DNA of 64,000 nt, taken from Bilabrum cf. latius (Eukaryota). The translations under genes and the position numbers were made by a program. Positions 17 to 61,612 of the stretch are shown piece after piece; position 1 is the stretch's first letter; every line of letters begins with the position of its first letter. Where the stretch lies: contig OZ237735.1 of assembly GCA_965178125.1 (NCBI GenBank), positions 186,001 to 250,000 of the forward strand, written 5' to 3'. Under the pieces are notes generated by a model. That model did not search any database and had not been told where the DNA came from. It saw nothing but the letters and a program-made list of their open reading frames with translations.

Positions 17-2848
17 TCACTCTATGATTCCCAGCGCCGCCAGCACGAGCGACGGCTGCTGCCTGGGCTGGTGGCACGTCCCCCTTGCTGCCGTGTAGAA
101 CTGCGTCAGGGCGTAGTCCTCGTCCCCCATGGCGCCCGTGTCCCCGCCCCACGCCTCCACGTACCTCAGGTGTTCCCTGGCAAAGGCCAGCTGGGAGAAC
201 ACGAACGGAGACCCGCTGGAGCACAGCAGGTACAGACTCATCGGCTGCAGCTCGTCCTGCCCCGGCTGCAGCCTGCTCAAGTCCACCCTGCACGTGACAC
301 CCGGCCTGGTCCCCGGGTATCGCTGCAGGTAGTAATCCCGATTCGATCGGAGCAGGGCGTGCCGAGTGTGCGTGAAGAGCATCCGCTTGTCGAAAGCAGT
401 CCTGGCCTGCTGCAGCAACCGTAAGAACGCCACGCTACGCTCATACGACCCCGCTGCAATGCGCTGCAGCTCCTCTCTGAGCCCCGCAGGCACCCGCACC
501 GCCGGCACCTGCAACGGCTTGCCTGCTTTCTGCAGCCTCCTCTGCAGGGCCAGCGCCTGCTTGTGCAGCCTCCTCCTCATCTTGCTGTCCTCCTCCGCCT
601 CTCCCTCGTACATGGGCCCCTCCCCTCCATCGGGGAGGTCCAGGGGATCCTCCCACGGACCTAGCCCGCTCCTGCTCCTGCTCGCATGCACGATGCCCTC
701 GAACCTGTCTCCCTTCACCTTGCTGCCCTCGGCGCGCTCGCACGCGTCCAGCCGCATGTGCGGCACCACACCGAAATCAGCAGGGCACAGCCGGCCGAGC
801 AGCTGCATGGTCACCGAGAGGAATGCATCCTGCTCGGCAAAACGTGCGGCGTAATGCGGAAACAAGCTGCCGTGCGCGTGCGCCGCAACGGCGTCGCACA
901 CCATGCACAGCAGCGACCCCCGATCCCTTTGCCTGCACCCCAACATGCGCAACCTGAAGTCCTTCAGCGCGGCCGCATCTGCATCCTCCTCTTTCTGTTC
1001 CCTGGATGACCCCGAGCTGGCACCCGGACCCCCAGCGGGGGACGCCCCGGCAGCTGCCGGCTTGCCAGACCCCCGGCCCTTATCCCCCCCCCCCTCCCCG
1101 CCCCCCTCCCCCTTGGGTAAGTCAGGCACTGTGGCTAGGAGGTCCGGGAACCTCGCCGCGATGCAGTCCGTGAGTGCGTGGCAAAAGGTGCGGTAGTCCG
1201 CCATGGCTGCCTTGAAATCGGCCGAGGGCGCAGAGGCGTCTGCCTCCACGGCCCCTTCCTCGCCTCCTGCTGCCCCGCTGCTCGCGGACCCAGCAGTCCC
1301 TATCCTGCCTCGGCCCCGGCTCCTGCGGTGGGCCCTCCCCGCTCGCCTGTCGTCCTCTTCGTCCTCTCTCTCATCCTGCCTCTCCTGCTGCTCCTGCACC
1401 CGCCGACTCGCCGCTGCCAGCTCGCTCACGCACTTGAGACCCGCCTCCCGCCGCGCCTCCGCCGTCGCCGCCAACCTAACTGCCTCCTCCGCTCGGGACA
1501 CGATCCCGCGTAGCCCCGCGGTCCGCCGCGCAGACGCGTCCATCGCCCGAGTCGCGCTCGCGGAGTGCACCCGTGCGTGCACCTCGGCGAACACAGACGC
1601 CGCCGTCCCAAAGCTGTGGAACACCGGCCGACGCAGCTGCCACTGTGGCCCTGGGCTCCCTGCCCCTACCCCAGCTTGCTCTCCTCCCTCTGCTCCTGCT
1701 GCCCCCGTCGTGGGGAAGAACGTGTTCCGGTCTTGCACCCTCCCGATTGGCGAGGCCGCCACGCACGGTAGCCTGCGCACCTTGGTAGGGCTCGCCAGAA
1801 CGTCCCGCGGATGCAGCGCAGTAGCACCTGAGCCAGAGCCAGAGCCAGAGCCTGAGCCAGTGCCACAGCCAGAGCCATTGCCAGAGCCAGGGCCAGGGCC
1901 AGAGCTCGGGGTGCTCGCACCGGAACAGGTGCTCGAGGCAAACTCCCGGGCTGGCAGGGCAGGGGGCACGAGCCGGAGCACCTGCGTGAGATAGTTCCGG
2001 GTTAGCTCCCGCATCGTCGCGCTCGTCTTCTCCTGCTCGGCCGCGGCGCCCCTCCTCAGCCTCGCCTGCTCCTCCACGACGCGCTGCACGGCCGGGTCCG
2101 AGGTGCTGGGGGCCGCGCCAGCGCCGGTGTCGGGTCCCCGTCCGATCTCCTGCAGTGGCCTCCCGGCGGAGTCCCGCAGCAGCGTGACGGCGGCTCCACC
2201 CGCTGCGAGCAGCCGGTGCTGCATGTGGATCTGGAACCACGCGGCCTCCGAGTAACGGCGCCGAAGCCTGCGGATCTCGCCATTGAACTGGTGGTCCAAT
2301 TCAATAGCAGCTTGGCTGCTCTCTCTAGCGGATTCGGAAGGCAGGCACGCGCACAGCACCTCCTTCCGGCTCTTGCTGGCGGCCGCCAAGCCTCCCATCA
2401 GCGCTCCCGCCTCCTGGCCTGCAAAGATCAGCTTGCATGCGTCCTGCACCATCTTTTCCTCCCGCTGCCGTCTCTCCGTTGCTGTCTACTCAACTTCGTC
2501 TCGCTACCGCACGCAGTAGGCCTGCAGTGATTGTATGCGCCTTTGGTCAGTTGTTGCGGCAATCCGCCTGTTCAAGTCCGTTTCTATTCTGAACCTCTCG
2601 CAAGCCGCGGCCGCGTCATGCCATTGAGCTAGAGGTAATGGTGCATCCGGCAGAGCTTGGCTTGGGTCAACCATATCTTCTTGTTCAGGAACGATAAACT
2701 CCTCGGTTGATGTGGCTGGCTCCGGCGCCTTTATGGGCGAGGGCTGTGGACTAGGCACAGAACCGTCGCCTTCTTTTGCAGCCAGATCACGGAAGCTAAA
2801 CTCTTCCAAATCGCTGTCATCCTCTAGGCAGTCCAAATCATCATCCAT
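17..2848 (-). CDS. VPS9-domain protein (Rab5-family GEF-like)
   Basis: ATG 2848 (MDDDLDCLEDD). Track ORFs 2504-2926 and 17-2452 share a frame and are separated only by TAGs at 2504 and 2486 (YCVR*RDEVE*TATERRQREEKMVQ). The C-terminus has a VPS9-like pattern (GQDELQPMSLYLL...SQLAF...GDEDYALTQFYTAA). Ends TGA. Confidence 0.75.
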
Positions 2849-2987
2849 GTTCAGCACCGAGCGATTCAATGCCGGCAGAATTTCGCAGGTTCGGGCTGGT
2901 GTATGTGACGAGTGTTCACTCATCACACTACCGGCGCAGCGTCGCTCCGCCGGGAGGGAGGATCCAACCAGCCTTCTGTGATAGAAA
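2849..2987. promoter_or_regulatory. Putative bidirectional promoter between the VPS9 gene and the protease
   Basis: 139-bp gap between divergent start codons. Inferred from geometry only. Confidence 0.45.
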
Positions 2988-4790
2988 ATGCTATCTGTGC
3001 TACCTTTGTTGCTCGTCTCTGGTGCATTTGCGGTACCAGCTGCTTACTCACCCCGGTATCACTTTACTGGGACGTTCAGACTTCCATATGCCGGTCTCAT
3101 TGAGAATTTCGAGGTCTGGACCAATGGCACAGAGCAGCGCATTAACTGGTACGGTGGGCTTGACGTTGATATCGCTACCCCACAGGTCAGTTATCAGACA
3201 TTTCCGGTGTACACTGGTTCGATAAACCGCCAGTGGTGCTTGCAATTTGGTGGTGGTGCACCCGTCCCGTTGCTGGTAAACATGAGCGAGGCGAACGGTT
3301 GGAAGCTTATCAACAGCACGAGCGAGCAGAATCATTACCAAAAAGTAGTTAAGAACGAGGAACGAGAATCTACCTATGATTTCTACTCTGCTGCGAAGGA
3401 CGGTACGCCGCAGCAGCTCCACATGCTCGGCTACGATTTTGTGCTGGGCTCTCACTACGACGAGTACATCATCGAGTACAAGGGTGTCACTCTGGGTCCA
3501 AAATCCACGGAGAATGCCACTCGCTTTGCGCCGCCAGGCCCGGATTGCGGTGGGTATCCCCCGATGGACCCCCGCCGCGGCGGGCCCGGGGACAGCAGCG
3601 ACTGGCGCTCGCGCAGGGTGGCCTCTCCTCTCGCCACGGTGAGAGCCTCCCTCGAGGAAGCGGCGGGCAGCGGGTCCAACCAGCCCCCCGCCGGCTGGCC
3701 CGACTGCTCCTCGCCCGACGCTCTCGCGCTGGCGGGCGGGGATTCGGAGCCGATTGAGTGCGCGTACGAGCGGTGGGCGGCCGAGCACGGCAGGGACCTC
3801 GCCGGCATGACGGCCCAGGAGCGCGCGCGGCGCCTCAGTCGGTTCCGCAGAGCCCATCGCGTGGTGACGTCGCACAACCGCAGGAGCCGCGCAGCTGCCT
3901 CTGCCTCCTCTCTTTCTTCATCTTCATCTTCGTCCTCGTCCCCTTCACAAGCGGGGGCTTCCTTCGATGTCCGCCTGACCCATCTGGCTGACTGGACCGA
4001 TGTTGAGCTGGCCACCCTCCGAGGCACCACCAGCCCGGCCAAGGCCCGCCCACCCACGGTCCCGGCCGCGGGTGTGCACCCGCCCCCGACCGCCGAGGAG
4101 CTGGCCACTTTGCCCACCAAGGTGGACTGGACCATCATCCCCGGGGTGGTGCTGCCCGTGCAGGACCAAGCCACCTGCGGCTCCTGCTGGTCCTTCGGTA
4201 CAATGGGGACCATCGCTGGCTCGCAGGCCATCAAGCACGGGTCGCTCACCCAGATGAGCCACCAGAGCGCCATGGACTGCACCTGGGCGGAGGGCAACTA
4301 CGGCTGTGACGGCGGGAACGACTTCCTGGCGTACAGCTGGTTCCTCGGGAACGGGAACGGGAGCATCCCCACCGAGACGACGTACGGGAACTACCTCGGC
4401 CAGGATGGGCGCTGCCACTACTACAACTCCTCCGTCAAGATGGGCGCGCAGATCACTGCGTACTACAACGTCACGTCGGGCAGCGAGACTGCCCTCATGT
4501 CCGCGGTGGCGCAGCGGGGGCCCATCAGCATCAGCATCGACGCCGCGCTCGAGACGTTCGACTTCTACTCGAGCGGCGTGTACGACGACCCTGCGTGCAA
4601 GTCGGGCCTGGACGACCTGGACCACACCGTGCTGCTCGTGGGCTACGGGACCTCCCAGTCCGGCCAGGACTACTGGAAGGTGAAGAACTCGTGGAGCACG
4701 CACTGGGGTGACGACGGGTACGTGCTCATCGCCCGCAAGGGCAACATCTGCGGGGTGGCCACGCAGCCCACGTACGTGGACGTGGCATGA
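2988..4790 (+). CDS. Secreted/lysosomal papain-family (C1A) cysteine protease with long N-terminal extension (26/29-kDa proteinase / CfaD-like) and I29-like prodomain
   Basis: Signal peptide MLSVLPLLLVSGAFA. Catalytic motifs QATCGSCWSF, LDHTVLLVGYG, KVKNSW. N-terminal segment YDFVLGSHYDEYIIEY. No internal TAG; ends TGA. Confidence 0.92.
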   Translation: MLSVLPLLLVSGAFAVPAAYSPRYHFTGTFRLPYAGLIENFEVWTNGTEQRINWYGGLDVDIATPQVSYQTFPVYTGSINRQWCLQFGGGAPVPLLVNMSEANGWKLINSTSEQNHYQKVVKNEERESTYDFYSAAKDGTPQQLHMLGYDFVLGSHYDEYIIEYKGVTLGPKSTENATRFAPPGPDCGGYPPMDPRRGGPGDSSDWRSRRVASPLATVRASLEEAAGSGSNQPPAGWPDCSSPDALALAGGDSEPIECAYERWAAEHGRDLAGMTAQERARRLSRFRRAHRVVTSHNRRSRAAASASSLSSSSSSSSSPSQAGASFDVRLTHLADWTDVELATLRGTTSPAKARPPTVPAAGVHPPPTAEELATLPTKVDWTIIPGVVLPVQDQATCGSCWSFGTMGTIAGSQAIKHGSLTQMSHQSAMDCTWAEGNYGCDGGNDFLAYSWFLGNGNGSIPTETTYGNYLGQDGRCHYYNSSVKMGAQITAYYNVTSGSETALMSAVAQRGPISISIDAALETFDFYSSGVYDDPACKSGLDDLDHTVLLVGYGTSQSGQDYWKVKNSWSTHWGDDGYVLIARKGNICGVATQPTYVDVA

Positions 4791-5005: not shown

Positions 5006-8000
5006 TCACGTACCCGCCGCAGCGGCGGTCGAGTCCCCCGCGGCAGCACCCCCTGCAGCCGCCGCCCCGCTTCCCACTGCGTCCCCCGGCCCCGCCCCGG
5101 CACCCTGGCTCCTCTGCTGCGCCAGAGAAAGGAGACTCTCCTCCCCGTGCGCAGCAAGCGCCCGCTCGTCGTACTCGTCCGAGGACTTGAAGAAGATCCT
5201 GGCCGCGTACGTCGAGAACTGCAGCGCCCTGAACTCGTCGATCTGCGCCTGCAGCCTCCTCCCCCGGAACTGGAGAGTCTGCACGTCCTGCGCCTCCACG
5301 CGGGTCTTGGGCTGCCCGATCTTGCGCAGCTGCTCGGCGGCCTGCTGCCTCTCCTTGACGAACTTTTGCTCGACCGACTCGAACCAGTGGAGGCTTCCAA
5401 AGGCCCGGTTCTGCCGCAGCACCGAAAGGAAGAATGCCACGCCCATGGCGAATCCGTCGTCCACAAAGTACGCCACGCGGCCCTTGCCCGCCTTGTCCAG
5501 CGACTGCTTCGCGTCCCTGAGTGCCTTTGTGAAGGACAGTGTCAGCGCAGGCACGAGGTAAGCGAAGCCCTTCCAGTGGGACTCCTTCTGCTTGCGGCTC
5601 CTGTCGTCGTCCTTCCTGTCGTGGATGCCCTCCTTGATCGCGCCCTGGAAGATCTCAACCAGCAGCTGAAAGAAATCGATGTCCCGAGAGAAATTGCGGT
5701 GCAGCTCTTCCACCACAGCGTCCAGCACCCCGGCCGCCCCAAGCGTGTCCGCGCTCAGGTCGCGAGCCTCCGGGTCGCGGGGCCCGGCGCTGCTCTAATG
5801 CCCGCCCTCGCCCTCGCCCTCACCCTCGCCGGACTTGCCCTCCTCCTCGCCACCGGCCCCGGCTCCCGACGCCGCGCCGCCAGCGGCCCCCTCTGCACCC
5901 CCTGCCTTGTGGTGAGAGGCGCCCTGCACTCCCTGCGAGGCCCCCGCCCGCATGCCCACGAACCCTCCCCGCTGGGCCGCCTGCAGGAAGGACACTCGGC
6001 TGGCCGCCATGCCGCCCGCGCCCGCCTCGTCCTCCTCGTCGCTGTCCGAGTCCTCCCCCAGCCGAGCCGCCTGCTGCTCCTCGCGCTCCAGCCGCGTGGT
6101 GCCCGCCACTATCTTGGCGTCCAGCGCCATGTCGCCCAGGTTGGGCAGGAATTGGATGGAGCTGGCCGTGTGCCGCATCGTGGCGGATCGCACGGTGCGC
6201 ACGAAGGCCAGCGCGTTGCCTATCCGGGAGATGAGGATCCTGCACTTGTCGAGGGGAGACAGGGGGTCCTCCCTCTTGCCGTGCTTCTGCATGGTCTTGA
6301 CGAAGGCCTCGGCGTGGTCGACGGGGTACAGCCCGTCGAGCTTCCTCCTCGCCTTCTTGTACCACCTGCGCTCCTTGGACAGGTAGGACCGGGTGATGGC
6401 GTCGTTGAGAAACGCAGACATGAGCTGCACCTGCTTGGTCAGGTAGCGGTACGCGTTGGTGACCACTGTGTTGACGATGCCCAGCCCGTGCTGCCGGATG
6501 GACGAGGCCACCGAGTGGATGCTGACCGTGTTCATGTGCTTGGACCCGCGCTGGGACCTGCGCTCGATGAAGAGCTGGTCGTAGAGGCTGTAGTTGTAAT
6601 TGCTCACGAACACGCTGAGCTTGCGCATGATCTGCAGCACGTCCACGCTCGTGTCGAGTGAGCCCATGGGCAGGTGGCTCTCGGCCAGCTCCAGGCCGTA
6701 CTTGTCAGAGGCGAGCGCGGCCATCTCGCCGTACGTCTTCCAGTCGTGCAGCGCCACCGTCGTTGCCTCGTAGAAGCGCTGCTCCAGGAATGTCTGCACG
6801 CACTCCCGGATGCTGAGCTCCCGCTGCACGATGCGCAGAGGCGGCAGCGCCAGGATGTGCGTGGGGACCTTGAGCGCCCCGCGCGCCGCGCCCGAGGCCG
6901 ACTTGGGGTTGGGCGGAGACCTGTGCTGGATGAGGACGTAGTGCACGTGCACCCGGAGGTCGCTCTCCACTGCCATGCTCAGCGGCTGCACCAGCTCGTC
7001 CTGCACGCAGCCCCACATGAACTCCTATAGGCTCTCCACCATGCTGCCGCTGGACCGGCCGCCGCCGGCCGCAGAGGCGCCGGCGCCCGAGGCGGGCTCC
7101 GCGGCGCTGGCAGGCCCCGCCGGCCCCAGGTGGCAGGCCAGCATGAGCTGCGGCACACAGTCGGCGAAGGCCGCCAGCAGCATGGGCAGCCTCCGTGCGA
7201 GCTTTGGGGTCTGCCCGTGGTGCTTGAGGACGTGCGGCAGGATGTCCCTGACGTGGTACAGGGCAGAGCAGTCGCAGCTGTCCTGCACCACCTGCTGCAG
7301 CGTGCACAGGTTGGTGATCTCGAAGAAGCACTGCCCCAGCACGCGCCGGGCCCCCGCGTCGACCGGCGAGCTGGGCTGCGCCAGCACGCTGGAGCCGAGA
7401 GACAGCAGGCTCCTTCTCTGGCTCGAGTAGGACTCCGTGCCCAGCAGCAGGTCCTCCACCGCGGTGAGGGCAGTGACGATGGTGGCGGCCTCCCGGCTGC
7501 GCTGCTGCCTGTCCATGATCAGTTTGGCGGGCTGGAGGGCCTTGACGGCACGCGCGGCCGCCTCCCTTACGATGATGGGGAGGGAGAGGGCCATCTCCGG
7601 GGCGATCCTGCGGATGGTAGCCTCGAGGGCCTTGAGCGCCAGCACCACGCGCACGAGGCACACCACGTCGTTCACCTTGAAGGGCTTCTCCAGGTGGTGC
7701 TGCAGCGCCAGAAAGTCGTCCATGAGACGACGGCCGGCGCTGGCTGCCATCACCGCCTGCACCACCAGGTTGCCCCGCTCCCCCAGCACCGTCTCAGATT
7801 TATCCGGTGCGTCTGGCACCATGGGCGCCTCCGCGAACATCATGTCGGCCCGCAGCATCCAAGCGCTCACACGCACAAAGAGAGCCTGGGAGCGGGCCGG
7901 CAGCGCGGCGCACAGAGCTGCGTGGCACCTCTCCCTGTGCGCCTCAGGGTCCTCCGGCTGCAGCTTGCGGCTGCTCAGTGGTATCTTGCAGTGCTGCTCG

Positions 8001-9557
8001 AGGAACTCGTCGGGCAGAAAGACGGCCAGCCCATGCATGCCCACCACGGGTACCTTGCCCAGAGCGGACCACAGCTTGCGGAAGACGGTCTCGTCGGGGC
8101 GGGTGCCCGAGGGAGGCGTCAGTGCCCGCTCCAGCGCGTACAGCCCGCACGCGCCCACGTAGATGTGCCTCTCGTCCGTCTCCGTGTCGCTGCCGATCGC
8201 GTCCACGGCTGCCACCGCAAGCTGGGTCACGGCCGCCCGGAACTCACGGAGGAACTCGGCGGACCCCACGTCCACCACGGTGCCCTGCTCCGTGGGCCGC
8301 CGGAAGTTCTGCCGCAGCACCGTGCTCACGGCGCCCTGCTCGAAGAGGTCCCGACCGATGCCAGCTAGCAGACGCTCAAGGGCGGCGGCCTTTGTTGCGT
8401 CGATGCCCAGGGCGGCTTGGCGCTCTGCCCCGGCAATCCCCTGCGCCGCCCGCTTGTATCGGTCCCACGCATCGGCGAGGAGCTCGTTCTGGCTGCGTGC
8501 AGGTGGATGGGTGGGTGGATGATAGGCATGGTAAGGAGACGGGGTTTGGGGGGAGCGGGGCTCATGGTGGTAGCGGTGAAAATCAATCAGTGAGCGGATG
8601 AGCCAGGAGAGAGAGGGAGAGAGCAGCTGATGCATGCACGCCAATCGATGCAGGGCTCACTCGATCACGCAGTCGATGGCAATCAGGGCGTGGAAGAGGT
8701 CGGCAGCGCACCGAAATACCCGCGAGAGCCGCACGTCCTTCCAAGCCCCGTAGAGCGGCGAGTCTTTGTTGTAGAGCGAGGCCAGCTGGTGCACCAGGTT
8801 GCAGGTGATCTCCTCGGACCGCAGGATGAAGTTGCGGAGGTCCTGCAGCATAGGGACGGTCCTGCCCATGAAGGAGGTGAGCACGCCGTCGGACCACTCT
8901 CGGTCCGAGCCATCCGAGGCCAGCCCGAAGAGGGACAGGGGAGGGAGGAAGTCCTGCCGGGCCTTCCGGGCCAGCTCCTCCATCTCCTTGGAGAGCGCCG
9001 TGAACACCAGGAGGATCTGCGGACTCAGGGGGACGCCAGGAAGAGCGCGCATCTTGAAATGATTGGCCATTGGATGGTGATGCGGCATCGTTCGTGAACA
9101 AAACCAATCTGTACTCACCTTTCGAGTAATCGAGTGGCTGACATCGGCATCCACCAGGTCCGGGATCGACACGCGATCTTCTGGATGCAGGACAACACCA
9201 ATGGGATCAGTCTGCGCAAATGTGATTAAAAAGTAATACTGGTGCACGATCGTACAGTACTTAACTCCAACTTTGGTGTGCATCTGCAATGCCTTGTCCA
9301 GACTTACGCCGTCCGGTTGCACATGGTAGAGGCTTGCGGTAGCAGCTTCCAGCAGCTCTTCCAATTTGTCCTGCGAACGATTGATATGAAAGAGCACGCT
9401 TGCAGATATGCAGCAGAAGATCATAACTGCGCAGAATCTGCCACAATCGTAGGCTCACGGCGTGATCTTTCCCAAGATCGATTAGATCCTCCAGGTGGTC
9501 CGCAGTCGGATCATCCTGAGGCTCATTATTTTCGAAGGGCGAGAAGTTGCTGGCCAT
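5006..9557 (-). CDS. WASHC4: WASH complex subunit 4 (SWIP/KIAA1033 homolog), spliced
   Basis: Conserved blocks ESDLRVHVH, FYEATTVALHDWKTYGEM, SIRQHGLGIVNTVVTNAY, IGNALAFVRTVRS, YFVDDGFAMGVAFFL, FGSLHWFESV, ARIFF. Predicted introns 9371-9458, 9212-9271 (weak donor), 9017-9118, 8493-8660. In-frame TAGs at 7025 and 5795. Ends TGA. Confidence 0.9.
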
Positions 9558-25350: not shown

Positions 25351-25546
25351 GTGACAGTGGGGAGAAAGCGGACGGCATCGCATGGCCGTCACCCGTCGAA
25401 GTGCGACGCGGCAATCGTTTGCGACCAAATCGTGCGACTACGGTTGCAACCACTTGTATTCGGTGGGCGTTGATCCATTCCCTATCCTTTCAGGGCCCAT
25501 TTTGTGATAGATTATATCCATTATTCATAAATTTGCGTACATATTC

Positions 25547-34395: not shown

Positions 34396-34628
34396 TGGCA
34401 ACTGCCGAATAACAATTGGAGTAGCAGGCTCTTTAGCTTGCGCAAAGGGGCACGCAGGGATCGCTCAAAGGACACGAAGTGCTCCTGTGTTCCTGTCACG
34501 CTGACGACGATTCGGCAGCTGGTTGGACGCGTGCAACAGAACAGTGTGACGTGTCGTCATCGCGTGTTCGCCCCGCTCCTAGAAGGAATCCGAGCGCTGG
34601 AGGTCTCGTTTCATTGGATTCAAAGCAC

Positions 34629-48300: not shown

Positions 48301-51300
48301 CAATCCGATTCGAGACTGCTCGACACAGCTGCGAGTCAGTTTGTCCTGTCACTGGACAGTGTAGGCCAGACGGCCAGCGGGTCCGGAGGTCATGCGGCGG
48401 ACGGTTTCATAATTGCATCATCGATCCCCGACAAGCCAGAATCGAAAGGAGAGGGCAACGGGTAGCCAAAGCACAGTGCAGGCTTCTGCACGGTCGCGCG
48501 ATGGGGCCTCCCTCCATCGGACCAGGTGTCGGGGGTGTCTCGAGGAGGCAAGCAGAGCTTCGGACTGCCAAGCAGGCCCGTGTCTTCGACCCGTTGGGCT
48601 AACCCTGTCCCCGCAAGCGAGTATTCGGAGGCATGCAGAGCTGAGCTGGGCTGTGAGCCGAGCAGTCTCGAGTTTGGAACCCGCCCGCCAGGCAGGGGTA
48701 GGATCGGCCCATTAGGGGCCAAGACGAGTGCCCCAGCCCCTGGAGTGCTCGTGCAGCTGCCTGAGGACGCAATCGTAGACTGGATGCCGTGGGCAAGATC
48801 CGTATGGTCCGAGCAGTCTCCAGCTGCTTCCAGCGTGCGACTACCAGGGAACAACGTGGGAGATCCGAGGTGCCCGTGGTACACCGCCACGTGCGCACAA
48901 ACGTTCGGCACTAGCTCCGTCGATCCGCTTGGCAGGGCATTTAGGTAGCAGCTGGACGGTGACGCGAAGCTGGGATAGCTTGCCCGAATCCACATCAACC
49001 GGCTGCCAGATGACTTTGAGGGCATCACTTGGGATTCACGCCTTGTGCAGCGGTAGTGCCGCAAGGAGTTTCGATCCATGTCAAGGCGCGAGAGGCGCGC
49101 GGTGCGTCTGCTGGAGCGGTTCTGGATGCACTCAGCGCAGGCTCTGGCCCGCAAAGGGGTTGAATGGGCTGTAAAGAAGCATAGAAACGTGATGGCGCGG
49201 ACAATTCAGTGCGTTACCAGGGCTTGGATCGCGAGGCGGGTAGTGGCCGGGATCCGGCGTGCTGGAGCCAAGCTAACACGGTGGGCGAGGTGGCGGCTCG
49301 TCCAGCGTAAGGATGCAAAGAAAGTGCTGAGAGCGCGCAGATTTAGGTGGAAGAAGCTCGTGCAGCGTTCTCTTGATCGGCTTGCCGCCCACTGCGAGCA
49401 GACGCTCTCCGAGAGACACCAGCCAAGCATTGTGGGACGCAACAGGCGGTGTCGCGTGATCGGGTCCCGGCTGCGCTTGTCACTGGCATGGATGAGCCTG
49501 CAGAGATGGTGGAGGACTCGGGTCAGCAGCAGCAGGCAGGCGATGCGAGCGCTCGAGTTCTTTGACTCGAACGAGATGCGGAGCCGCTTCCGGCGGTGGA
49601 GGCGCAGTGCCAGGCAGGCTCGAATCACCCGCGTGACCCTATCGAAGATCTTCCTGCACACTGTGTCTGTGCGCACCAGGAACTGTTCTTTTCACAGGTC
49701 GCGCGCAGATAGAGTGGAGAGCATGTACAGGCAATCTCTGAAGAAGCGGTGGCTCGGCAGGCTGGCTCGGGCGGCGGCCCAGGCGCGAACCAGGAAGCTG
49801 CGGGCCATTGGCATGCACAAGCGCCTGGGCATGCTGTCGTCGGCCACGCGACGTGCATTTGACGCGCTGAGGCAAGGCATCCGGATCGAGTCCAGGCAGC
49901 TCTGGCTGGAGCAAGAGGCGGACAAGACTGGGGCCAAGCGCCGCAAGAGGCGCGTGTTCCGTGCCATCCAATCCCTGGTGCACCGCACCCTGGAGGATCG
50001 GAAGAAGTTCATCATGTCCGTCTCCTTCTCCCACAGGCTCCTCAAGAAGCATGCATTCCAATCTATCGTTGGATTTGCTCGAGATGCTCGTGTCCGCAGA
50101 CGGCAAGCAGCCGCCATGCTGGTCAACTCCGAGAATGGGCTCATGCTGCGGTGCCTGCTTGCAATGCGGGCCAGGGTAGCCTTCCAGAGGCATCAGCAGA
50201 AGATCTTCCACAAAGCCGCTACACTCCAGCGCATGCAGCTGTGTAGACGATCTTTCCGTCGCATCCTGCAGTTCAACGATCAGGAGCGCAAGAGCATCGG
50301 CGGGATGGTGCGTTGGCTGCAGCGATCGGCTCTGCGGATTGGCTTTGCCGAGCTGCGAGACGGCGTGCAGATCGCGCAGCAACAGTTCTTGGAGAAGCTC
50401 CAGGGGGCAGAGAGGCTGCACTCGTCCGCCACTCGGCTGCAGTCGTGGTGGAGGGGCCGCAGGTCGGTAATGAGCGTGTACAGGAAGATCGCGAACCTCC
50501 GTCGGATCGCGGGGATGGTGGAGGAGGCCTGGCACTCGAGGAAACTCCGGAGAGCGGCGCGCCGAATCGCAGGTTTGGCAAAGACTGAGCTGTTCTGGCG
50601 GCACGAGCGCGAGCGGTTGCAGCTGGAGCAGTGTGACGTGGAGTCCAGACGACTCGAGCAGTGGGTTGGAGCGGCGAACCGCATCGGCACGGGCTATTTG
50701 GACTATCGCAAGAGGTTGGTTGCATGGCAGTTTAGGCAGGCGCAGCGGCTTCAAGCTAAGAAAGATAGGCTTGAGCGCCAGGCCTAGGAGAAGGCAGCTG
50801 CGCTCAGACAGCAAGAGAAGATCCGCGAGTTCCACCGGCGCGCCCCCGCGGCAGTGGAGCGCATCATTGCGGCGTGGAGAGGGTATGCGGAGAGAGAGCT
50901 TCGGCAAACCCTAAGAGCTCTTCAGTTGCAGCAGTGGAGCGCCACTCGCATCCAGCGCAACTACAGGCGAAGACTGGCCCGGTATCGAGCGGGGGCCATC
51001 CTGCGGTTGCGCGACGACCAGCTGCGGCGGCAGTCCCGACTGCAGCAGGAGGCGGCAGCTGCCAGGACTCTTGGATACAGGCACAGGGTGGAGCAAGGGG
51101 AGTTCCTGGAAGGGTTGAAATCATTTCCGTGGTTCATTAGCCTCTAGGACGTAATGGTGGTTCCGGAGCTCTCGCTGCAAGGCGCGTTGGACGGGTTTCT
51201 CGGCCTGTTTGGGTGCAGGCCTGCGCGCCAGTCCCGGGCGGTGTTCGCTGGATACGATCACGAGCGGCTGCATCGAGTCGCAATCTAGACCCCGCTGCAA

Positions 51301-54300
51301 GAGCTGTAGGGTGAGATTGGCAGAGACATGGAGATTGCCTTCTATGCCCTCGGTAAGACGGTTGAGATGGCGTGTGTGACCGGCGTCTCTAGCCGGGCGA
51401 GAGAGCGCAAGCTGCGGCAGCTGGCGCTCGAGCAGATCTCGGTGACGGTGCCCGATCTAGAACCTGGCGATGGTGCCCGGATAGTAGATCCCAGCAGCAC
51501 ACATCTCGGCAGAACCGGCACCGTGCTTCAGAGGCAGCCGGGCGTGCGATTCGGAGGCAAAGCCACCCTGAAGATGGACGACTCGGGTCAGCTGCTACAG
51601 GCGTACCTTACGCACGGGGGCCAGTCCGACATGACTGCCTAGGACTCGCTGCATCCTGTCCCAGGAGAGTTCGACAGCACCGGCAGCTCTATGGTGCCTG
51701 CTCGCCGGTAGCGCCTGCCCTGGTACACCCAGGACCAGCTGGTCGCCATGCGCGGCAGTCTTCTGCAGCATGCGGAAGCTATCCGACATAAAGAAAGGAC
51801 GAGGACAGCGGCGATCCGCATTCAGTCTGCGGCTCGCATGTGGCTCGCTCAGGCCCTGGCCGACAGAACCAAGCGACTCCGCGAGCTTGATCCAACCGCC
51901 GGGCAGCTCGGCGATTTGACCCTCTACGAGGAAGAGGACGTGTAGGCAGTCATCAAGACGAAGCCCGCCACAGGTTGGACTTGCGCAGGCTTGTTTGGGT
52001 GCCTAAGGCAGGCAGCCACCGCCGCTGGGCGCCGGGCAGTCAGGCGCCAGAACGAGATGCGGCACCTGATGCGCGCCAGGAGGCGCTGGATCCGCGACAT
52101 GGTGTTCCGCCGCAACCTGGCGGTGTCTGCAAGCGTGCCTGCAAAGGACATCGAGAGGGTTCTCCAGTCCCGCCAGCGGCTCGAAGCGATGGAACGTGCC
52201 GACGAGATGACGGAATGGCACCAGCTGGCGGAGTCCTACACGCGGGTAGACGTAGGCAGTGCTCTGGCCCCCGCCCCACCGGCCACCGGTGCTCGAGTCG
52301 ATCACTGGGCTGCTGCAAAGGACTCCCGTCCGGGCACCGGGCACAGCACGGCACCAGGCACTGCGACGGCCGCTGGGGAGTTTCCGTTGTCAGCTGGAGT
52401 TCAGGATCGTGTGGGATTCGGAACAAACGACGCTGGGGATGATGATGATGCATCCCGAGATGATCGCGGCGACGTATCGCTGCAAGCGACTTCGCTCGCG
52501 CCAAGTCGCCTCACAGAGGATGGGATTGGCAGCGGACTTGCTCGCGGCGAGCAGCCGTCCAACACGTGGTCTCGTCTCGCCAAGCCTCGTCCATTCGCAG
52601 GCTTCGACGACTTTGCTATGTCCGAGGATGACGGCCCCACGATGGTCGCTGACCTCACCACAGTCGGCGCTCTGGACAGGAACGGCCTGCGGCGGCGGTT
52701 CTAGCAGCGCGATCCCAATGCATAGGACAGCACCGAGTACAAGGAGCTGAGGCTTGAAGGCGACACCAGCTCTGCCAGGCTGCAGACGGCCACCGAGCGG
52801 CAGATGGTGGTGCAAACGCCACAGGCAGCACTGCGACACATTGGTGGCTCAGCCAACGTGCACATGCCGGCTAGTCGAGCACGCACGGCCCCAGCCATGG
52901 GGCGTGCCCCCAACATGTCCGCGGATGCCAGCATTGGCGCAGGTGCCATGCACCTGATCTCAGCCACGGAATCCAAGCGGTTGGCGGCACAGGCTCTCAG
53001 GCAGGTGAGGACAGCTGAGCATGGCACCCGAGAGCAGGCGCAGGGTGGGTCGCCGGGCAGTAGTCGTCCGGGCAGCGCGGCCTCGCAGACTGGGCTGCAC
53101 GGCATCGGCACCCCGTCCATTCTTCTCGATGCTCCGGGCATTGCGACCGATAGTTTGGAGCATGCTGTGGGCAAGAGGTCGAGCGTATTGGGTGGCGAGA
53201 CCCAGGTTGATCCCGAATCCGTAGCAATGAGCGGGTTCATCGCTGGGCACAGCCTGGAGCAGGCCGCTTCACTCGCCTCGATGCCTCGGGCGCCCGCCGT
53301 GCCATGGTCAGCGGCGGGCCGGGCACGAGGCGAAGTACCCATCAAACCATTTGGCGAGCTGGCACTGGCGCCGAGCGGTGGAGGGAACAAGGAGTGCACT
53401 GTGGCATCGAGCACACCGTCCAATCGGGTAGAAGGCTCTGCTGCATTTGCGGGATTCAGGGTGGGCACCGGTGCAGCCATCGGAGCTAGCGCTCCACTGC
53501 CTCGCAGCGCCATCGGCACCCCGCCTGAGGTGCTTCTGCTGCGGTGGAGGGAGAGAACGGCCATGGCCGTGCTGTGGCACAGGATGCGATACATTTTCCT
53601 TGCTTCGTTCTGCTACCCAGTCGCCAATCAGCTGCAGCTGCGGCACGAGATTGAGGCTGCCAGAGCCAGCGGCAGGCGCGCGATCAGGTGCCAGTCTCCA
53701 CGAAGGCCGGCGCTGACGCTGGAGGACGACGTGCAGCCTGCGGCGCACACACATGCGATACAGCCAGCCGTGGCTGCAGCCCCGCCCCTGGATCTCGGCA
53801 AAGCAGCAGGGACTGCAGGGGCAGCCGCAGGAAGCAGCCGCAGGCTCGCGCCAGGCGATGGATCCGCTGCCGATCTGCGCTCCACCGCAAACCTGCACGA
53901 CTTGGACCACAGGTCGGGCGAGGCCGTCTCTGGAGCTGCCCTGTGCTGCGCTGGGCCGGAGTGGCAGGAGGGTCACGTGACCTACCGCACATGGGTGGGC
54001 AGCTACAGGTTCACCGACCTGCGGCACTCTCCGCACGTGTCCGCCGGCGGGGATTCCCTCTACCACGGGGAGTGGAGCGAGGTAGGCGCGGCACAGGGGC
54101 ACCCGCATGGCAGGGGCTACGTGCACTTCTTGTCGGACCACCCTCGCTTCAACCCCGACTTCAACCGGTGGCCGGAGTACTACGAGAGGCTGCGGCACGC
54201 TAGAGATCGGCTGCTGGCCACAAGGGCGGACCGACCGTACGGCGAGCTGTTCACTGGTGCCAAGCCAGACGCAGATGTGCGGTCCAAGATGGCGAGGCTC

Positions 54301-57300
54301 ATCGCAAGGGACGAGGCCTTGTCTATCGCCATCGCGGCGCAGGCCGAGGCTGTCACTGTGGGGGCAGAGCCGCGAGCACTGGCCCTGGACGCGGTGGCTA
54401 GCTTGGCACGGAGGCTGGAGGCAGCGGCACGGAGGGACAGGAGGCAGCTGGAGCGCGCTGCCAAGCGAGGACACGAGCAGCCCTCCCACGAGCAGCCCTC
54501 CCACGTGAGGGGCCGCCAGCTGGAGGCTGCTATCCAGCGGGAACAAGAGGCGCGGGCCAGGAGGCTCGAGTGGCTGCGGCTGCGGGACTATGCGAGAAGG
54601 CAGCAGTATCTGGAGGCGGTGCGGCGCGCGGACGAGATCGCTCGTGCTGCGATCGGGGACAATCCGCAGCTGCTCCGCGACGCGTGGGGCGCGGGGGGCG
54701 GAGCCAGCCCGCAAGCAGCGGTGCGGCGCGCCTACAGCCAGAACCTAGACGATGTGCCCACCCCTCGACCCTAGTCTGCAGCACAAGACTACCAGTCATA
54801 GGACGGACTAGACGGTGGTGACGCATCACCGGCAGAAGAGGCCAGGCGACAGGCGGTGGAGCAGGTCCAGGGCCCGGGCTAGCTTGGCTACAGGCAGCAC
54901 GAGTTCGAGCCGCCGAGCGGTCTCGAGCTTAGCCCACTGTGTAACGACATCTCGTACGACCAGCTCGAGGGTGAGTTCAGGCACGGCTACGTGGGCGGGC
55001 TGGTGTCCATCTGGTACCGTGACGGCAGCGAGTACAACGGAGCGTACGTGTCCACGCTCCCGGACCCTCCCCGAGCCTCGATGCCTGACACGCCCTCCAC
55101 GTTCGATGAGGAACTGAAGCTGGCGCCCGGCATGCGCACCGGCAGGCATGCCATCGCGGACGCGGGCGGGCGGCTGTTCGAGGTGGCCATGCGGGCAGTG
55201 GGCCCAATCCCAGAGCGCCTGCTGCCTGCCTCGCTGCGCGGATCCAAGCACGTCGAGAAGTGGCTGGACGCATCTTCGCCCCAGCCTCGCCCGGTGCAGG
55301 CCGGTGGCAAGGCAGCAAGCGATCCTCTCGACCTGAACAAAGTACCTGCTGCAGCGGCCGGGCGCTGGTCTCCGAGCAGCGATCAGTCGTCCGTGTCGGA
55401 TCCTGACATGCCGGACGACCGCTAGTCTGGCTCTTTGATGTCCTCTGGCGGCCACCAGAACCTGCCCTCAGACTTTGAGCCCATCCCGCCCATGTCCATG
55501 TCCACTGACGGGGCGTCCGTGGGGTCTGACGAGCCGGGCAACCAAGGCGTCGGGCCGCTCGTCACTTCGTCGCTGCGTCAGGGATCGGCCGCAAGCCCAA
55601 CATTCACGCAAGGGCTCGGCACCGTTATTCCTAGCGGCGCCTCTCATCAGAGCCTGCAGAGCCTTCAGGGCCTCGCCCTCAACGAACGCCCCGCCAGTGC
55701 GTCGGTGGTTGTGGTCACGGGCCAGCCGCTGCCTGTTTCCCCCGATGATCCGGGGGAGGTGGACCTTCGCAGGGCCACCAGGCCGCGGGTGCGGTTCCCG
55801 CTCTTCTCGTGGCTCGGTAGCCTGTGCACCGCCATGGTGCGGCCCTCGCCTCCGATAAGGGGCCGGCTGGACGGTCACTGGGGCGTGTGGGTCACGAGAG
55901 ACGGCTGGCGCTTCGAGGGGCCCGAGGTGGACAACCACTTCAACGCGCTGCTGTGCACGGCGAGCAGGGCGGTGGTGCGGTCCCCTGACGGGCACGCCTA
56001 CGACGGTGCCATGTGCCTTGGCAAGCGCCACGGGAGGGGCGTGATGCGGTATGACAGCGGGACAACGTTCGACGGCTGGTGGCGGGATGGGGTGCCCTCC
56101 GGTCCTGGGGTCGTGACGCGCCCCTCTGGCCACCAGCTGGTCGGCTCCTTCGAGCACGGGCTGCCCCACGGCATATGCGTCGAGACGGACAGTGCCGGGG
56201 GGTTGTTCGTGGGCGAGTTCATGCACGGCTCCAAAACCGGCTTTGGGATCTTGCGGTCCGGACTGGTCGCAGCGGAGCCAGTGGGCGGCGTGCAGCTGCC
56301 TGCGTCCCTCAACACAGGAGCAGCAGCTGTGGATGCGCTGGTGAGAGAAGTGCACCTGGGGCACTTTGCCGGCAACCGTCCGCACGGGACGGGAGTCCGG
56401 CTGTACCGAGACGGGTCCTTGTTCTGGGGGGAGTGGCAGCACGGCAAGCGGAGCGGGTACGGTGTGTGGGAGTGGCCATCGGGGCAGAGGTACGACGGCA
56501 GCTTCGTCGACGACCAGAGGCACGGGGAGGCCGTCGTGTCCACGCCTGCTCCCAAGACGCTGGTGCGGGCCCCCGTCCTGCACGATGATGCCACTGTCCC
56601 GACGGCTGCTACGGCTGCTGCTTGTGCCAGTGGACCGGGGGGCCTGTTTCAGGAGCATGGCGCGGAAGACGGAGCAGCAGCTGATGCGCGACCCAGGGAG
56701 CAGGCGGGCCGCGATCCCACCGAGCCACCAGGTGCCTCCTCGTCCCCCTCCAGCGGCAGCACGGCCGGGAGAGAAGCCAGCCGGACGAGAGCCGTGCTGC
56801 GGCGACCACACAGACCGACATGGTCCGCCCGCACCGTGGACGAGACGGCCATTCGGTGGGTGCTGGACTCGGTGCAGAGCCGGGGCGGGTCGGTCGCCGC
56901 GCTGAGCGCGCGCATCGGCACCGAGGTGCGGCGGGCGCTGGACGCGTCCAGGCGGCTATACCGGGACGAGAGGCGCTGGGAGCGGCGCGTGGCGACAGAG
57001 TGGGAGCGGGACAGCAAGGTCCGCACGTTGGCTGAGCTATCGAGCGAGGCGGCCACGGAGCAGTTCAAGAGCAGCTTCCCGCTCGAGGTGCCGCTGCCGT
57101 CCCGGGGGCCAGTGCCCACCACTGCGTTCAGGGAGGAGGGCGAGTCCGGGGAGAGGGGGGGGGATGGCGACCCCCAGCACGGTGGCGATGGGGCGGCGGA
57201 AGAGGCCGAGTCGCCGCTGGCGGGCCAAGCAGAGCACTCGGCTGGTCCTCTCCCAGACAAAGCTGGCAGCGGCCCAAGCCAGGCCCCCGGCAGCGCTGCG

Positions 57301-59592
57301 ACAAGCCCAGCCCAATCGCCCGAGGCCCAGCTGCACCCGCTGCAGCCCGAGCCCGAGGCTAGCCAGGAGCAGCAGGGGGCGCTGGTCTGGAGGAGCCTGC
57401 TCGCCGGGACCACGGCGGCGGTGCTGCCCCGCCTGCCGCCCGGGGTGGACCCTGAGGACCCGGAGGTGAGGGAGATCGCGAGTCGGCTGCAGCAAGCCAA
57501 CCCGGAGGTGGCTGGCACGCGCGGGATTCTGCTGTCCAAGCAGGACCTCCAGCGCGAGTACGACAGCATGAAGCGGGATCGCGCCGACCTGAAGAAGCTG
57601 AAGGATCGCGCGGACCGCCTGGGAGCCCAGAGCGCCGGGGCCAGCGCGCAGATCCAGGAGGCGGAAGCCGACCTCTCCCGGGCCAGGGGCAAGCTGAACT
57701 ACGCCAAGCACGCCCTCGGGGAGTACTGGCACGAGAACGACCCTAGGAGGACCAAGGCAGAGTACGACGCCAGGGTCGCCGAGCTGGCGGGTCTCTCGGT
57801 GGAGCAGTGGGAGGAGCTGCGGTCCCTCAAGGAGCCGCTGCTGGGGCCCGCCCGGCTGCTGCGGCCCGTGGGCCGGGCGCTCGCCGTGCTCACAAACTCG
57901 CCCGAGGGCTGGTCCAAGGTAAAGCTGTGGTTCGCTGACTCGGACTGGTGCCGCCGGCACGGGATCGAGGTGGACATTGCGGTGGACGAGGACTACTACC
58001 AGGAGGAGGAGGAAGAAGAGGAGGAGGAGGAGAAAGGGGCCTCCCAGTCCGCTGCATCGGGACACGAAGCCGAGCCCGGCGCGGGGACGCACGAAGGGCT
58101 CGAGAGCCGAGCCGGTGCCCATCGGCGGAAGAAAGCCCCGCACTTCCGGGCGCGCCTCGTGCACGAGTTGCAGCGGCAGCACCTGAGCCCTTACGTGGTG
58201 GGCCGGTCCTCGAGCAAGCTGGACGAGGCGCAGCGGCTGCTCTACGGGGACCCGCAGCTGAGGCCAGACTCGGAGGAGGTGCTGAGGCTGCCGGCCGCGG
58301 CCCAGGCCGTCATCGGTTTCCTGCGTGCCCTGCACGCGCACGCCCTGGCGGCGGCCCCCGCCTACAGGCTGTGGATGGCCTACACGTCGGCGCGCACGGG
58401 CGTGGGCCTCTACTCGGGTTCGACCCTGCGCGCCGTGGAGGAGGCCGGGGCCCTCGCGGGCAGGGCGCGCCAGGCCGGGGAGAGGGCGCGCGCGGCGCAA
58501 AAGGCGCTGGAGCACCGGGAGCGAGGGCTCTCCCGCTGGGCGCGCGAGTGCGGCGAGGCGCGGGAGATCGTGCGCGCCTACCACGGCGACGACGGGCTCG
58601 TCGAGGTGGACGCGGACATGACCCCGCGGGGGTTCTCCGTGCCCGAGGGCGTCCTTCCAAGGGTGCAGCGCACTGGGGTGCGGGCGCGGGAGGACGAGTA
58701 CGTCCCCGCGCTGCGACAAGAGGACCGCGCCGAGATGGTGGCCGCCCGCGCGGGGGTGCTGCGGGACCTGGAGGGGGAGCAGCGGCGGGCCGAGGCGCGG
58801 AGGGTGCGCGAGTTCGATTCCCAGAGCGAGGCGCTTCTGGCGGGGCGCGGGGAGGGGCGGGGGCCGCAGTCCGGGATGGTGCTGGTGCGGGACGCGGACA
58901 GCGGGTGGTGGTACTGGTTCGACCCCATCGGGGGGGACACGGTGTGGGCGAGCCGCAGAGAGGTAGAGGGGGGTGCCGCCGCCGCCGCCGCCGCCGCCAC
59001 GGGTGGCGGGGAGGATGTGGGGCAGCTGGATGAGGACGAGGTGCGGGAGCTCAAGAAGCTGGCCCGACGTGCGCTGCGTGAGGGCAAAGAGGCTGCCGAG
59101 GCCGTCGCTGCAGCAGGGGGTGCTGGTGCTGCTGCGGCGCCCGCCTCGGAGCTTGCCAGGAGCAGGGCGGCCATCCGGGCGAGGAGGGGCGAGGACAGGG
59201 GCGCGGACAGCCAAGATGGTGGCGGCGGCGTCAGGGGGCCCCCGAGGGGCCGCGCGGCACGGGCCGGCGAGCATCTGGCCCGTCGCGTGGCGCACGAGAG
59301 CAAGGTTGCGGAGGCGATCGCGGTGATGCGGCTGGACCCCGCCGAGCTGGACCAGGGGCGCATCCTGAGGGAGAGGGGCGAGCGGAGGATGGAGCAAGAG
59401 GTGCTGGAGCCGGACGAGGGGGAGCAGTGGGGGCTGCCGGGGGCCGTGCGGCTCGGCGCGACATGGGACGATGCGGCCGGGCCCGGGCCCGGTCCACGGC
59501 GCGAGGACGGGGACGAGCAGAGGAGGAGGGACGTGGGGGGCCTCATGCGGATCTCGGGGCCCGGGATGGAACGTCTGAAACCCCTTGGATGA
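45307..59592 (+). CDS. Giant multidomain protein, ~4720 aa: Cys-containing LRRs, IQ/Sfi1-like basic repeats, KOW-like motif, MORN repeats, coiled coil with dynein-stalk-like insert, WW-like motif
   Basis: All track ORFs from 45307 to 59592 in this frame are separated only by TAG (29 counted). The one in-frame TGA (46837) falls inside a predicted intron 46836-46958 (GTGAGA...CTGAC...GCAG) that restores ITDDLSSYLLRGSP. IQ motifs ATRLQSWWRG, ATRIQRNYRR, AIRIQSAARM. MORN motifs YDGAMCLGKRHGRG, FWGEWQHGKRSGYG. Confidence 0.75.
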
Positions 59593-59788
59593 TTCGTGCA
59601 AACCCGCGGTTTTTAAATCCATGCGCGAGCACAGAAGAGAGGCCGCGCGCGCGCGACAATGCCGAATCGATTTTGTTGTTGCGAGTGGTTTCGGTGCTAG
59701 TCTGGTTTTGCACGAACGGGGGATCGAAACGGAAACAGGAGTGCTCCACACACGCGTCTGCCCTTGAATCGCCGCGCAGCGCTCGAGC

Positions 59789-61612
59789 ATGCTCCCACAA
59801 AAGCGAGGGCGTGTCGATGGAAATACAAATACGGGACATGCGCGAGAAAATTCTTCCTAGCCGTCGTCCGGAGCGGCTCAGGACCATTCCGGGTCCAAAC
59901 GGCATCGCTCCGAATCCGGGGCGAGCGGGCGCTCGTCCGGCGGAAATTAGGCTGGATAGAATGAAACTAGTCAGGCGCAGCAAGTAGCCGCTGCTGCGGC
60001 ACGGCGAGCCGCCGCCGCGGCGCGGAGCGCCGGGAGAAAGAGCTAGCTGGACCAGCTCGCGAACGCGGCGGAACGGGTGAGCGCCGCAGAGTCTAGCACG
60101 CACGGGCGGCGCTCCGCATCGGCGAGAGCGATTGCTTCTGCGTACGGAAGCGAGGCTCCCACTCACGTGACCAGGGCCTCCACGGGCTCGCTGCAGCAGA
60201 CGAGGATCAGCCGGAGCTACCTCGACGAGCAGCAGGCGCCGGAGCCTCCCTCGGCCCAGCCGCAGCGCGGCCGCAACGCCGGCGCGGCGGCGGCCGCGGC
60301 CGCCGCCGCGGCTGCCGCCGCTGGCGCGGTAGCGGCGCGCCAGGCGCGGCAGACCTCCTCAGGCGGCGGGGGCTCGGCCGTGACCATGCCGAGCCTCTCG
60401 CGCATCCCGGCCGCCCCGATGCCGCCCCCCGGCAGCGGCGGCAGGCATCATGGCTCCTCGTCCTCCGCGGGGCAGCAGGGCGGCGCGGACGCCGACGCGG
60501 ACGCGGCGGCCCTCCGGCGGCGCGGGCGTCCCCGCGGGAGCAAGATCGCGGACGGCACGACGTGCCCCCAGTGCCAGAAGCCCTTCAGCACGCACTCCAA
60601 CCTGATCAAGCACATCCGGGCGGTCCACGAGAAGAAGCGCAAGTTCGAGTGCCCCAAGTGCAAGAAGCGCTTCGCGCAGCACATCGACATGGCCAGGCAC
60701 GTGGACGCCGTGCACAACCAGATCAAGGCCTTCCGGTGCCCGCTGTGCGACAAGGGCTTCGGGTACTCGAGCAACCTCAACAAGCACGTCGAGGCGGTGC
60801 ACAAGGAAAAGGTAGAGGTGCGCAGGGGCAAGGGGAAGCGGGCCGAGTTCGTGCGCAAGGACACGGGGGAGAAGCTGCCCATGCCCGTGGGCGCCGCGGC
60901 CACCATCACCACGGACCCGCTGCGCAAGCCGGCCCCCGTGTGGAACTCGGACGAGGGCAAGGCGCTGAATGTGGGCAAGCTCGACCTGTCCACCCCGGCG
61001 GGGGCGGCCGCCAGCGCGGCGCAGATCGCGGCGGCGCGGGCGGCCGGCCGCTCGACCTCCTCGAGCTCGTCCTCCTCCTCGTCCTCCTCCGCCATGGGGG
61101 GCGGAGCCAACAACGCCGCGGCGTCGGCGGCCCTCGTGGCGGCCATGGCGGCGTCGGGCGGCAGCAGCGGGCTGACCGGCCTGCCGCACTCGTCACACGC
61201 GTCCAACCCCCAGTTCGCGGCGGCCGCGGCGGCTGCGGCGGCCGCGGCTGCTCGTCACACCAAGGCCCGAGCGGCCGAGACGGCGGCCCGGCAGGCGGCC
61301 AAGAACGCCGCGGCGGCGTCCCAGCGGCAGCAGCAGCAGCAGCAGTCGTCGTCTTCGCTGGGGGGAGAAGGAGGGGTGTTGTCGTCTGGGTCGAGCCGCC
61401 TCCTCAGCATGCCGCCCCCGCAGTCGCAGACGGGCGTCAGGGCAGAAGGGATGGTCCCCGTGGTGGGGGCGGGGTCCTTGTCGATGCCCCCTCCCTCCGG
61501 GGCGGGGTCCTCCTCCTCCTCGGCGGCCCAGTCCAGGGTGGTGGACGTGGCAGCGGCGGGCGCGGCGATGGGGGCGAGGGCCGTGGAGGAGCAGGTCGCC
61601 AGGGAGTTCTGA
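59789..61612 (+). CDS. AT-hook + 3x C2H2 zinc-finger transcription factor, ~607 aa
   Basis: ATG 59789 is reached by reading through TAGs at 59858, 59948, 59957 and 60044. AT-hook RRRGRPRG, three fingers (CPQC, CPKC, CPLC), and A/S/Q-rich tracts. Ends TGA. Confidence 0.82.

Follow-up and report, generated by a model that had tools for sequence, protein, structure and literature searches.

What does the codon TAG mean in a nuclear genome whose large genes run straight through it? The question is raised by a 64,000-nucleotide (nt) stretch of contig OZ237735.1, positions 186,001 to 250,000, deposited for Bilabrum cf. latius and called the window below. This DNA is eukaryotic and nuclear, has a G+C content of 64.5%, and carries long, nearly intron-free genes. 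Under the standard code a scan for open reading frames (ORFs) breaks the large genes into pieces, and reading through TAG restores each of them to one uninterrupted frame, between 1008 and 4237 codons long. A first-pass annotation, made by a model from the letters of the window, had proposed that TAG encodes an amino acid in this DNA, a proposal that the codon counts, protein domains, independent contigs and relatives described below all support. We put the probability at about 0.9 that the window comes from a GC-rich, intron-poor protist nuclear genome in which UAG specifies glutamine, UGA is in use as a stop, and UAA neither encodes an amino acid nor ends any gene found in this sample, the pattern of NCBI translation table 15.

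Coding frames exclude TGA and TAA and retain TAG

The analysis rests on 12 exact gene models, eight with in-frame TAG and four without, in which two introns (37504-37606 and 46836-46958) were taken from GT..AG joints in contigs of run X5. The eight TAG-bearing genes hold 65 in-frame TAGs, with 29 in the gene for a giant protein and eight in AGL (glycogen debranching enzyme), and the counts of the first-pass annotation were reproduced exactly in every gene. Across the about 16,700 codons of these eight genes there is no TAA, no internal TGA and no frameshift, which is what the annotation had reported of these exons. In frame 0 of the 12 gene models TAA is likewise absent, and TGA occurs solely as the final codon, in 12/12 models, in line with the earlier observation that genes end in TGA. 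The shifted frames of the same models are full of all three codons, with 259 TGA, 89 TAG and 30 TAA in frame +1 and 227, 85 and 29 in frame +2 (486, 174 and 59 when summed). Coding frames thus admit TAG but have been cleared of the other two codons, a pattern that neither chance nor decay would produce. TGA and TAA are kept out of the reading frame by selection and TAG is not.

Conserved domains lie across or beyond the TAGs, as the first-pass annotation had noticed for conserved motifs. In WASHC4 the Pfam domain WASH-7_mid (residues 466-840) spans TAG 544, and WASH-7_C (971-1157) is downstream of TAG 954. The AnmK domain (1472-1613) of a PhoD-AnmK fusion spans TAG 1578, the sterol-sensing domain (416-562) of a Patched-like gene comes after three TAGs, and the catalytic domains of AGL are downstream of AGL TAGs. 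The frames behind the earlier gene names are sound; of the names themselves, VPS9 and FG-GAP fall below the Pfam cut-offs (E = 0.24 and E = 0.0025) and are used here tentatively. The genes are as follows.

17..3043, minus strand: VPS9-like long ORF (name tentative), 2 TAG, TGA end; Pfam VPS9 E = 0.24
2988..4790, plus strand: papain-family cysteine protease, no TAG, TGA end; Pfam Peptidase_C1 E = 3.6e-62
5006..8656, minus strand: WASHC4 (WASH complex subunit 4/7), main exon, 2 TAG, TGA end; WASH-7_mid E = 1.3e-100, with WASH-7_C and WASH-4_N
within 8657-9454, minus strand: WASHC4 upstream exon, an N-terminal piece, and intron letters
20485..25350, plus strand: PhoD-like phosphatase / AnmK kinase fusion, 9 TAG, TGA end; AnmK E = 2.6e-36, PhoD E = 4.2e-9
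25511..29872, plus strand: large membrane-anchored repeat protein (FG-GAP-like, name tentative), 3 TAG, TGA end; FG-GAP E = 0.0025
30031..34464, minus strand: Patched-like / sterol-sensing-domain protein, 8 TAG, TGA end; Sterol-sensing E = 1.6e-35, Patched E = 6.4e-32
34629..36599, minus strand: tubulin-cofactor-E-like protein (TBCE-like; LRR and ubiquitin-like), no coding TAG; Pfam and Atlas match; L001 ortholog syntenic, 64% identity
37387..37503, plus strand: AGL exon 1, TAG at 37420-37422; joint 37503^37607 (GT..AG, run X5), frame continues across
37607..45196, plus strand: AGL exon 2, 7 TAG, TGA end; hDGE_amylase E = 1.7e-95, GDE_C E = 1.2e-93, PDB match 8zeq E = 4e-225
45307..46835, plus strand: giant protein exon 1 (LRR region), 10 TAG; joint 46835^46959 (GT..AG), frame joins; L001 ortholog
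46959..59592, plus strand: giant protein exon 2 (LRR, IQ-like basic repeats, MORN repeats), 19 TAG, TGA end
59768..61612, plus strand: C2H2 zinc-finger protein with an AT-hook-like RGRPRGS motif, 4 TAG, TGA end; zf-C2H2 E = 5e-15

TAG makes up 10% of the glutamine-type codons in the eight genes. The four genes without TAG (2988-4790, 34629-36599, 10027-11832 and 15671-17200) comprise 2370 codons, in which about 9 TAGs would be expected from their frequency in the remaining genes and none is found, suggesting that some genes avoid the codon. TAG use is uneven among genes; it peaks in giant-gene exon 1, where G+C at third codon positions is also at its lowest (0.61).

The TAGs recur in independent contigs and in apparent transcripts

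Contigs from four runs belonging to four studies (X1, X5, X6 and X8) were compared with window positions 37400-57399, and the comparison reported no letter that differs and neither insertions nor deletions. Of the 37 TAGs in this stretch, 21 lie within the listed X5 pieces, and the X6 pieces include 8/8 of those in AGL. A systematic assembly error, with CAG as the true codon, had been named earlier as a way in which the proposal could fail; at the covered sites the contigs of the four runs show no letter other than that of the window.

Run X5 carries additional information. One of its contigs, of 7912 nt, skips the 103-nt GT..AG intron of AGL (37504-37606) and carries 8/8 AGL TAGs with 0 differences, and a second contig is without the 123-nt GT..AG intron (46836-46958), thereby joining the two giant ORFs. 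Depth in X5 varies by gene (28 vs 5-12), and in X1 it is flat at 12.4. Because the X5 contigs are precisely without the two introns and their depth is gene-dependent, we read them as spliced transcripts, and because they keep the TAGs, these are, on that reading, neither spliced out nor edited, the other outcome that the first-pass annotation had considered. The TAGs appear to be present in spliced mRNA. The X5 AGL contig reaches 45405, beyond the giant-gene start codon (45307); the overrun (45197-45405) may be an AGL 3' untranslated region overlapping the 5' end of the giant gene, or two transcripts merged in the contig.

TAA is not a sense codon and the genes examined end in TGA

To ask whether TAA shares the fate of TAG, we used the window together with L001, a metagenome contig of 11,274 nt and 58% G+C with the same gene order (TBCE-like on the minus strand, AGL and the giant gene on the plus strand). 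L001 has 36 in-frame TAGs and 0 TAA in 3434 codons. The L001 AGL forms a single 2484-codon frame that contains 25 TAGs and ends in TGA; under the standard code no piece of it exceeds 390 codons. The ratio of CAA to CAG is 100:579 in the window ORFs and 27:71 in L001, so that a TAA with the meaning of TAG should occur in frame about 11 times in the window and about 14 times in L001. Both have 0, with a probability of about 1e-5 for the window and about 1e-6 for L001. As the expected TAAs are missing from both, only UAG has changed meaning, and with TAG as sense and TAA not, the code matches table 15. TAA is not a sense codon.

These numbers bear directly on the alternative that UAA and UAG both specify glutamine (table 6, the ciliate or Amoeboaphelidium type) and that TAA is merely too rare to be met in a GC-rich 64 kb. 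The trinucleotide is indeed scarce in the window, with 125 and 117 occurrences on the two strands, no gene is seen ending in TAA, and the two codons usually change meaning together (PMC5304391, PMC11687900). However, beside the 65 and 36 TAGs of the window and L001 not one of the expected TAAs is found, whereas the off-frames of the window genes hold 59, and we consider this alternative very unlikely. TAA is not the end of any confidently identified gene: the window has 30 TAA-ended ORFs that reach 150 codons or more, and each of them overlaps another gene or sits in a gene-poor stretch. From a 64-kb sample, TAA may be a rare stop or unused.

A second alternative, that TAG has a dual meaning and ends some genes while being sense in others, is similarly improbable. 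Dual-meaning codes are reported for Condylostoma, karyorelict ciliates and Blastocrithidia, and the gene ends examined here number only 12. Against it, TGA closes each of the 12 models and in no case is a terminal TAG required, the C-terminus of AGL at its TGA matches the end of its homologs, and a TAG as near as 43 codons to a gene end still lies inside the conserved AnmK domain.

Close relatives have glutamine at TAG sites

To identify the amino acid, we compared the TAG sites with the proteins of relatives. A HMMER search with residues 1290-2489 of the giant ORF against 1.84 billion representatives found three fragments encoded on one 12,383-nt contig (P0139, P0140 and P0144) that are 91-93% identical to the window giant protein. 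At the five window TAG sites covered by P0139 and P0140 (91-92% identical), the relative has Q, S, Q, Q and Q, and the chance of at least four glutamines (Q) in five at the background frequency of Q is 2e-5. P0140 stops immediately before the window TAG at 51286-51288 and P0144 immediately before the window CAG at 51535-51537; breaks of this kind are to be expected from standard-code gene calling when TAG is a sense codon in the relative too. Three further proteins from the search, P0145, P0142 and P0143, are short fragments of ~55% identity that tile the giant-gene region with small gaps between them.

L001 gives the same answer from a greater distance. Its AGL is 60.6% identical to that of the window, and two TAG positions are common to both. 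Opposite the reliably aligned TAGs of L001 the window has Q at 9/15, and the codon there is always CAG. One of these nine sites falls in the column DATWFWLQ, where Q is present in 11/12 other AGLs. In a BLOSUM-based log-likelihood over the L001 TAG sites, Q leads E, which ranks second, by 8.3 units and is 13 units ahead of R. True CAG codons give a matching partner profile, with Q in 42% of cases, whereas GAG, AAG, TTG, TAC, TGG and others pair with Q in 0-6%. As judged from these alignments, TAG means glutamine, its positions corresponding to Q in close relatives. The same interrupted frames occur both in the ~92% relative and in the syntenic, ~55-60%-identical L001, and, with two such relatives and shared AGL TAG positions, the reassignment was inherited and is not private to one strain.

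The altered code most likely works through two components. A tRNA-Gln with a one-base anticodon change, CUG to CUA, would decode UAG but not UAA, which is consistent with the missing sense TAA, and an eRF1 that had lost or weakened its recognition of UAG while keeping that of UGA would leave UGA in service. Both mechanisms have been proposed or found in other UAG-only lineages (PMC5304391, PMC11687900).

Several observations weigh against the reading of TAG as glutamine or limit it. Set against L001 on its own, the window TAG sites pair with A, E, R, R, A and H; Q occurs at 0/6 and is not top-ranked, and these partners do not separate the candidate residues. One of the five sites covered by the ~92% relative has S, and, as this relative is known from proteins only, its breaks are presumed to be TAG. 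Opposite codon 1578 of the AnmK fusion, a TAG, two solved bacterial AnmKs of low identity have W. Among 120 homologs the columns at the AGL TAG sites are variable or gapped and uninformative, which is why distant homologs gave no help; in PDB alignments they lie outside the aligned blocks and WASHC4 is without a solved relative, and the search for Patched-like homologs returned a single match, of no use for column analysis. Run X5 is labelled 'RNA? (probably DNA)', and among the runs that contain window DNA, from several studies, none is recorded as RNA, so that transcript status stands on the two intron-less contigs and their depth. If X5 is DNA, the letters are still independently confirmed, but the case against RNA editing falls. 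With 12 gene ends seen, TAG or TAA may occasionally serve as a terminator. ARAGORN and Rfam scans of the window and of the loci L001, L009, L025 and L027 turned up no CUA-anticodon tRNA, ARAGORN called no tRNA of any kind in them, and the eRF1 gene is not within the 64-kb window. The sole tRNA-like element of the window is 63 nt long (62639-62701, plus strand; Rfam, 34.5 bits) and combines an anticodon loop of Lys(CUU) type with a truncated T-arm; it is not a UAG reader and could be a pseudogene of a tRNA or a repeat derived from one.

The first of these points would suit an alternative in which TAG specifies another amino acid, such as Glu, Arg, Leu or Ser. The partners in L001 and the tryptophan in AnmK speak for it, as does the column at WASHC4 TAG 544, which in 17 homologs has E in 6, D in 5, Q in 3 and R in 3, and lineages with UAG as Leu and as Ser exist (PMC11687900). 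It is nevertheless highly improbable given the Q at four of five sites in the ~92% relative, the window CAG opposite 9/15 L001 TAGs, and the margins of Q over E and R in the likelihoods. The idea that the TAGs are artefacts or decay (systematic C-to-T assembly errors, pseudogenes, or codons that RNA editing corrects or splicing removes) is close to refuted: we found no evidence for it, although the X5 RNA label is a guess, and against it stand four-run contigs identical in every letter, intron-less contigs that retain the TAGs, about 16,700 codons free of TAA, TGA and frameshifts, and two relatives with the pattern at shared and at different sites.

The lineage may be a stramenopile near bicosoecids

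To place the lineage that reads TAG as glutamine, we used WASHC4 and AGL; no rRNA was found in the 64-kb window. The best named match of WASHC4 is Cafeteria roenbergensis, a stramenopile, at 44% identity, and another stramenopile, Tetraparma, is also among the 17 matches. In WASHC4 trees the window is sister to Cafeteria with support of 99 (SH-like, FastTree) and 98 (SH-aLRT, LG+C20). The placement comes from one gene, and the window and Cafeteria branches are both long and share a skewed composition; we therefore regard the source lineage, at about even odds, as a stramenopile near bicosoecids. By the same homology comparisons the lineage is evidently not a ciliate, and its nearest named relative is Cafeteria. 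A search of the ESM Atlas with the TBCE-like protein and the cathepsin returned function only and no lineage signal. In the WASHC4 data, P0130, filed as Symbiodinium sp. KB8, is almost identical to Cafeteria roenbergensis P0126 (branches of 0.017 and 0), which suggests that it is a bicosoecid contaminant in an algal assembly.

The AGL tree (FastTree, 42 rows) puts the window and L001 in a strongly supported clade of 13 metagenome sequences that has no named member and is apart from fungi, animals, Amoebozoa and Capsaspora. One member of this clade, L009, has an AGL (2816-11575) that ends at TAG at the homologous C-terminus and is a standard-code member. On sequence grounds, then, the reassignment is common to at least two further relatives in public data, and more distant members of the AGL clade keep TAG as a stop. 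The clade members other than the window and L001 (L009, L027 and P0001-P0008) use the standard code. AGL-clade proteins have 1900-2900 residues, up to about 1400 more than the ~1530-residue animal and fungal enzymes, and the excess consists of low-complexity insertions.

Two candidate identities were rejected: Amoeboaphelidium, whose genomes have 40% G+C against 64.5% here and whose code is UAR as Gln (PMC10608142, PMC5304391, PMC6299283), and the rhizarian exLh, in which UAG is Leu and UAA is the dominant stop (PMC5304391). No Amoeboaphelidium protein is among the homolog matches of the window, although such proteins are named in NCBI.

Comparison with known nuclear codes

Nuclear code changes outside ciliates are known from about a dozen lineages, and cases in which UAG changed without UAA are fewer (PMC5304391, PMC11687900). 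The nearest parallel in kind is Iotanema spirale (Fornicata), in which UAG is Gln, UAA is kept as the dominant stop and a tRNA-Gln(CUA) is predicted (Panek et al. 2017, PMC5304391). Like it, the window lineage is a non-ciliate protist that moved UAG alone to glutamine and in which UAA is not sense; unlike this member of an anaerobic metamonad supergroup with dominant UAA, the gene ends seen are all TGA, TAA is unseen, and its G+C is 64.5%. The ciliates Hartmannula sinica, Trochilia petrani and Protocruzia tuzeti use table 15 with UAA at 93.5-100% of aligned gene ends (McGowan et al. 2024, PMC11687900). The window shares with them the codon table, the presence of TAG in most genes and the lack of any sign of dual meaning (PMC11687900), and differs in being non-ciliate and in ending its genes in TGA instead of UAA.

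Amoeboaphelidium protococcarum, an aphelid parasite of algae, reads UAA and UAG as Gln (Karpov et al. 2013, via PMC5304391, PMC6299283). It resembles the window lineage as a non-ciliate that has a stop-to-Gln change and occurs with algae, but there both UAR codons are reassigned and G+C is 40% (PMC10608142). In Rhizaria sp. exLh UAG is Leu and highly expressed genes avoid UAG, and in Scotinosphaera UAG is Ser (PMC5304391, PMC11687900). In both, as in the window, nuclear UAG is uncoupled from UAA, and the avoidance in exLh has a counterpart in the four TAG-free window genes; the amino acid, Leu or Ser there and Gln in the window lineage, is different.

The first-pass annotation had called the reassignment possibly undescribed. 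Full-text searches, which leave subscription journals and supplements outside, found no report of nuclear UAG reassignment in a stramenopile or a GC-rich flagellate, two stray matches proving unrelated, in keeping with that suggestion; an earlier description is nonetheless possible, and the code itself is the known table 15. Because the table is already known, what may be new is the lineage, the GC-rich setting and the termination by TGA only. A genome of this G+C content in which TGA is the sole stop seen is at odds with the usual picture of UAR-to-Gln changes under AT pressure.

A fuller scenario, which we offer tentatively and at somewhat less than even odds, is that an undescribed, bicosoecid-related clade of GC-rich heterotrophic stramenopiles reassigned UAG to Gln independently and under GC rather than AT pressure, that TGA became its sole terminator while TAA fell out of use and may be unassigned, and that standard-code sisters whose genes end in TAG survive in public metagenomes. 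Since public relatives come in grades, at about 92% identity, at about 55-60%, and as standard-code cousins, the order of events is testable, the steps being the loss of TAG stops, the gain of a tRNA(CUA) and the alteration of eRF1. A practical consequence already visible is that standard-code gene callers fragment these proteins, as in the database entries P0139-P0146, so that assemblies and metagenome bins of such organisms need table 15.

Duplicated genes in the window

Apart from the genes listed above, the window contains a tandem duplicated gene pair, a multi-C2H2 zinc-finger gene and a GH5-like glycosidase gene, at 10027-17200 (minus strand) and 17604-18605 (minus strand). The copies have near-identical protein sequences, and the intact ones are without coding TAG. 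One GH5-like copy has an expanded 9-residue repeat, GGKVDREGL, and a third zinc-finger copy is degenerate, with in-frame TAGs.

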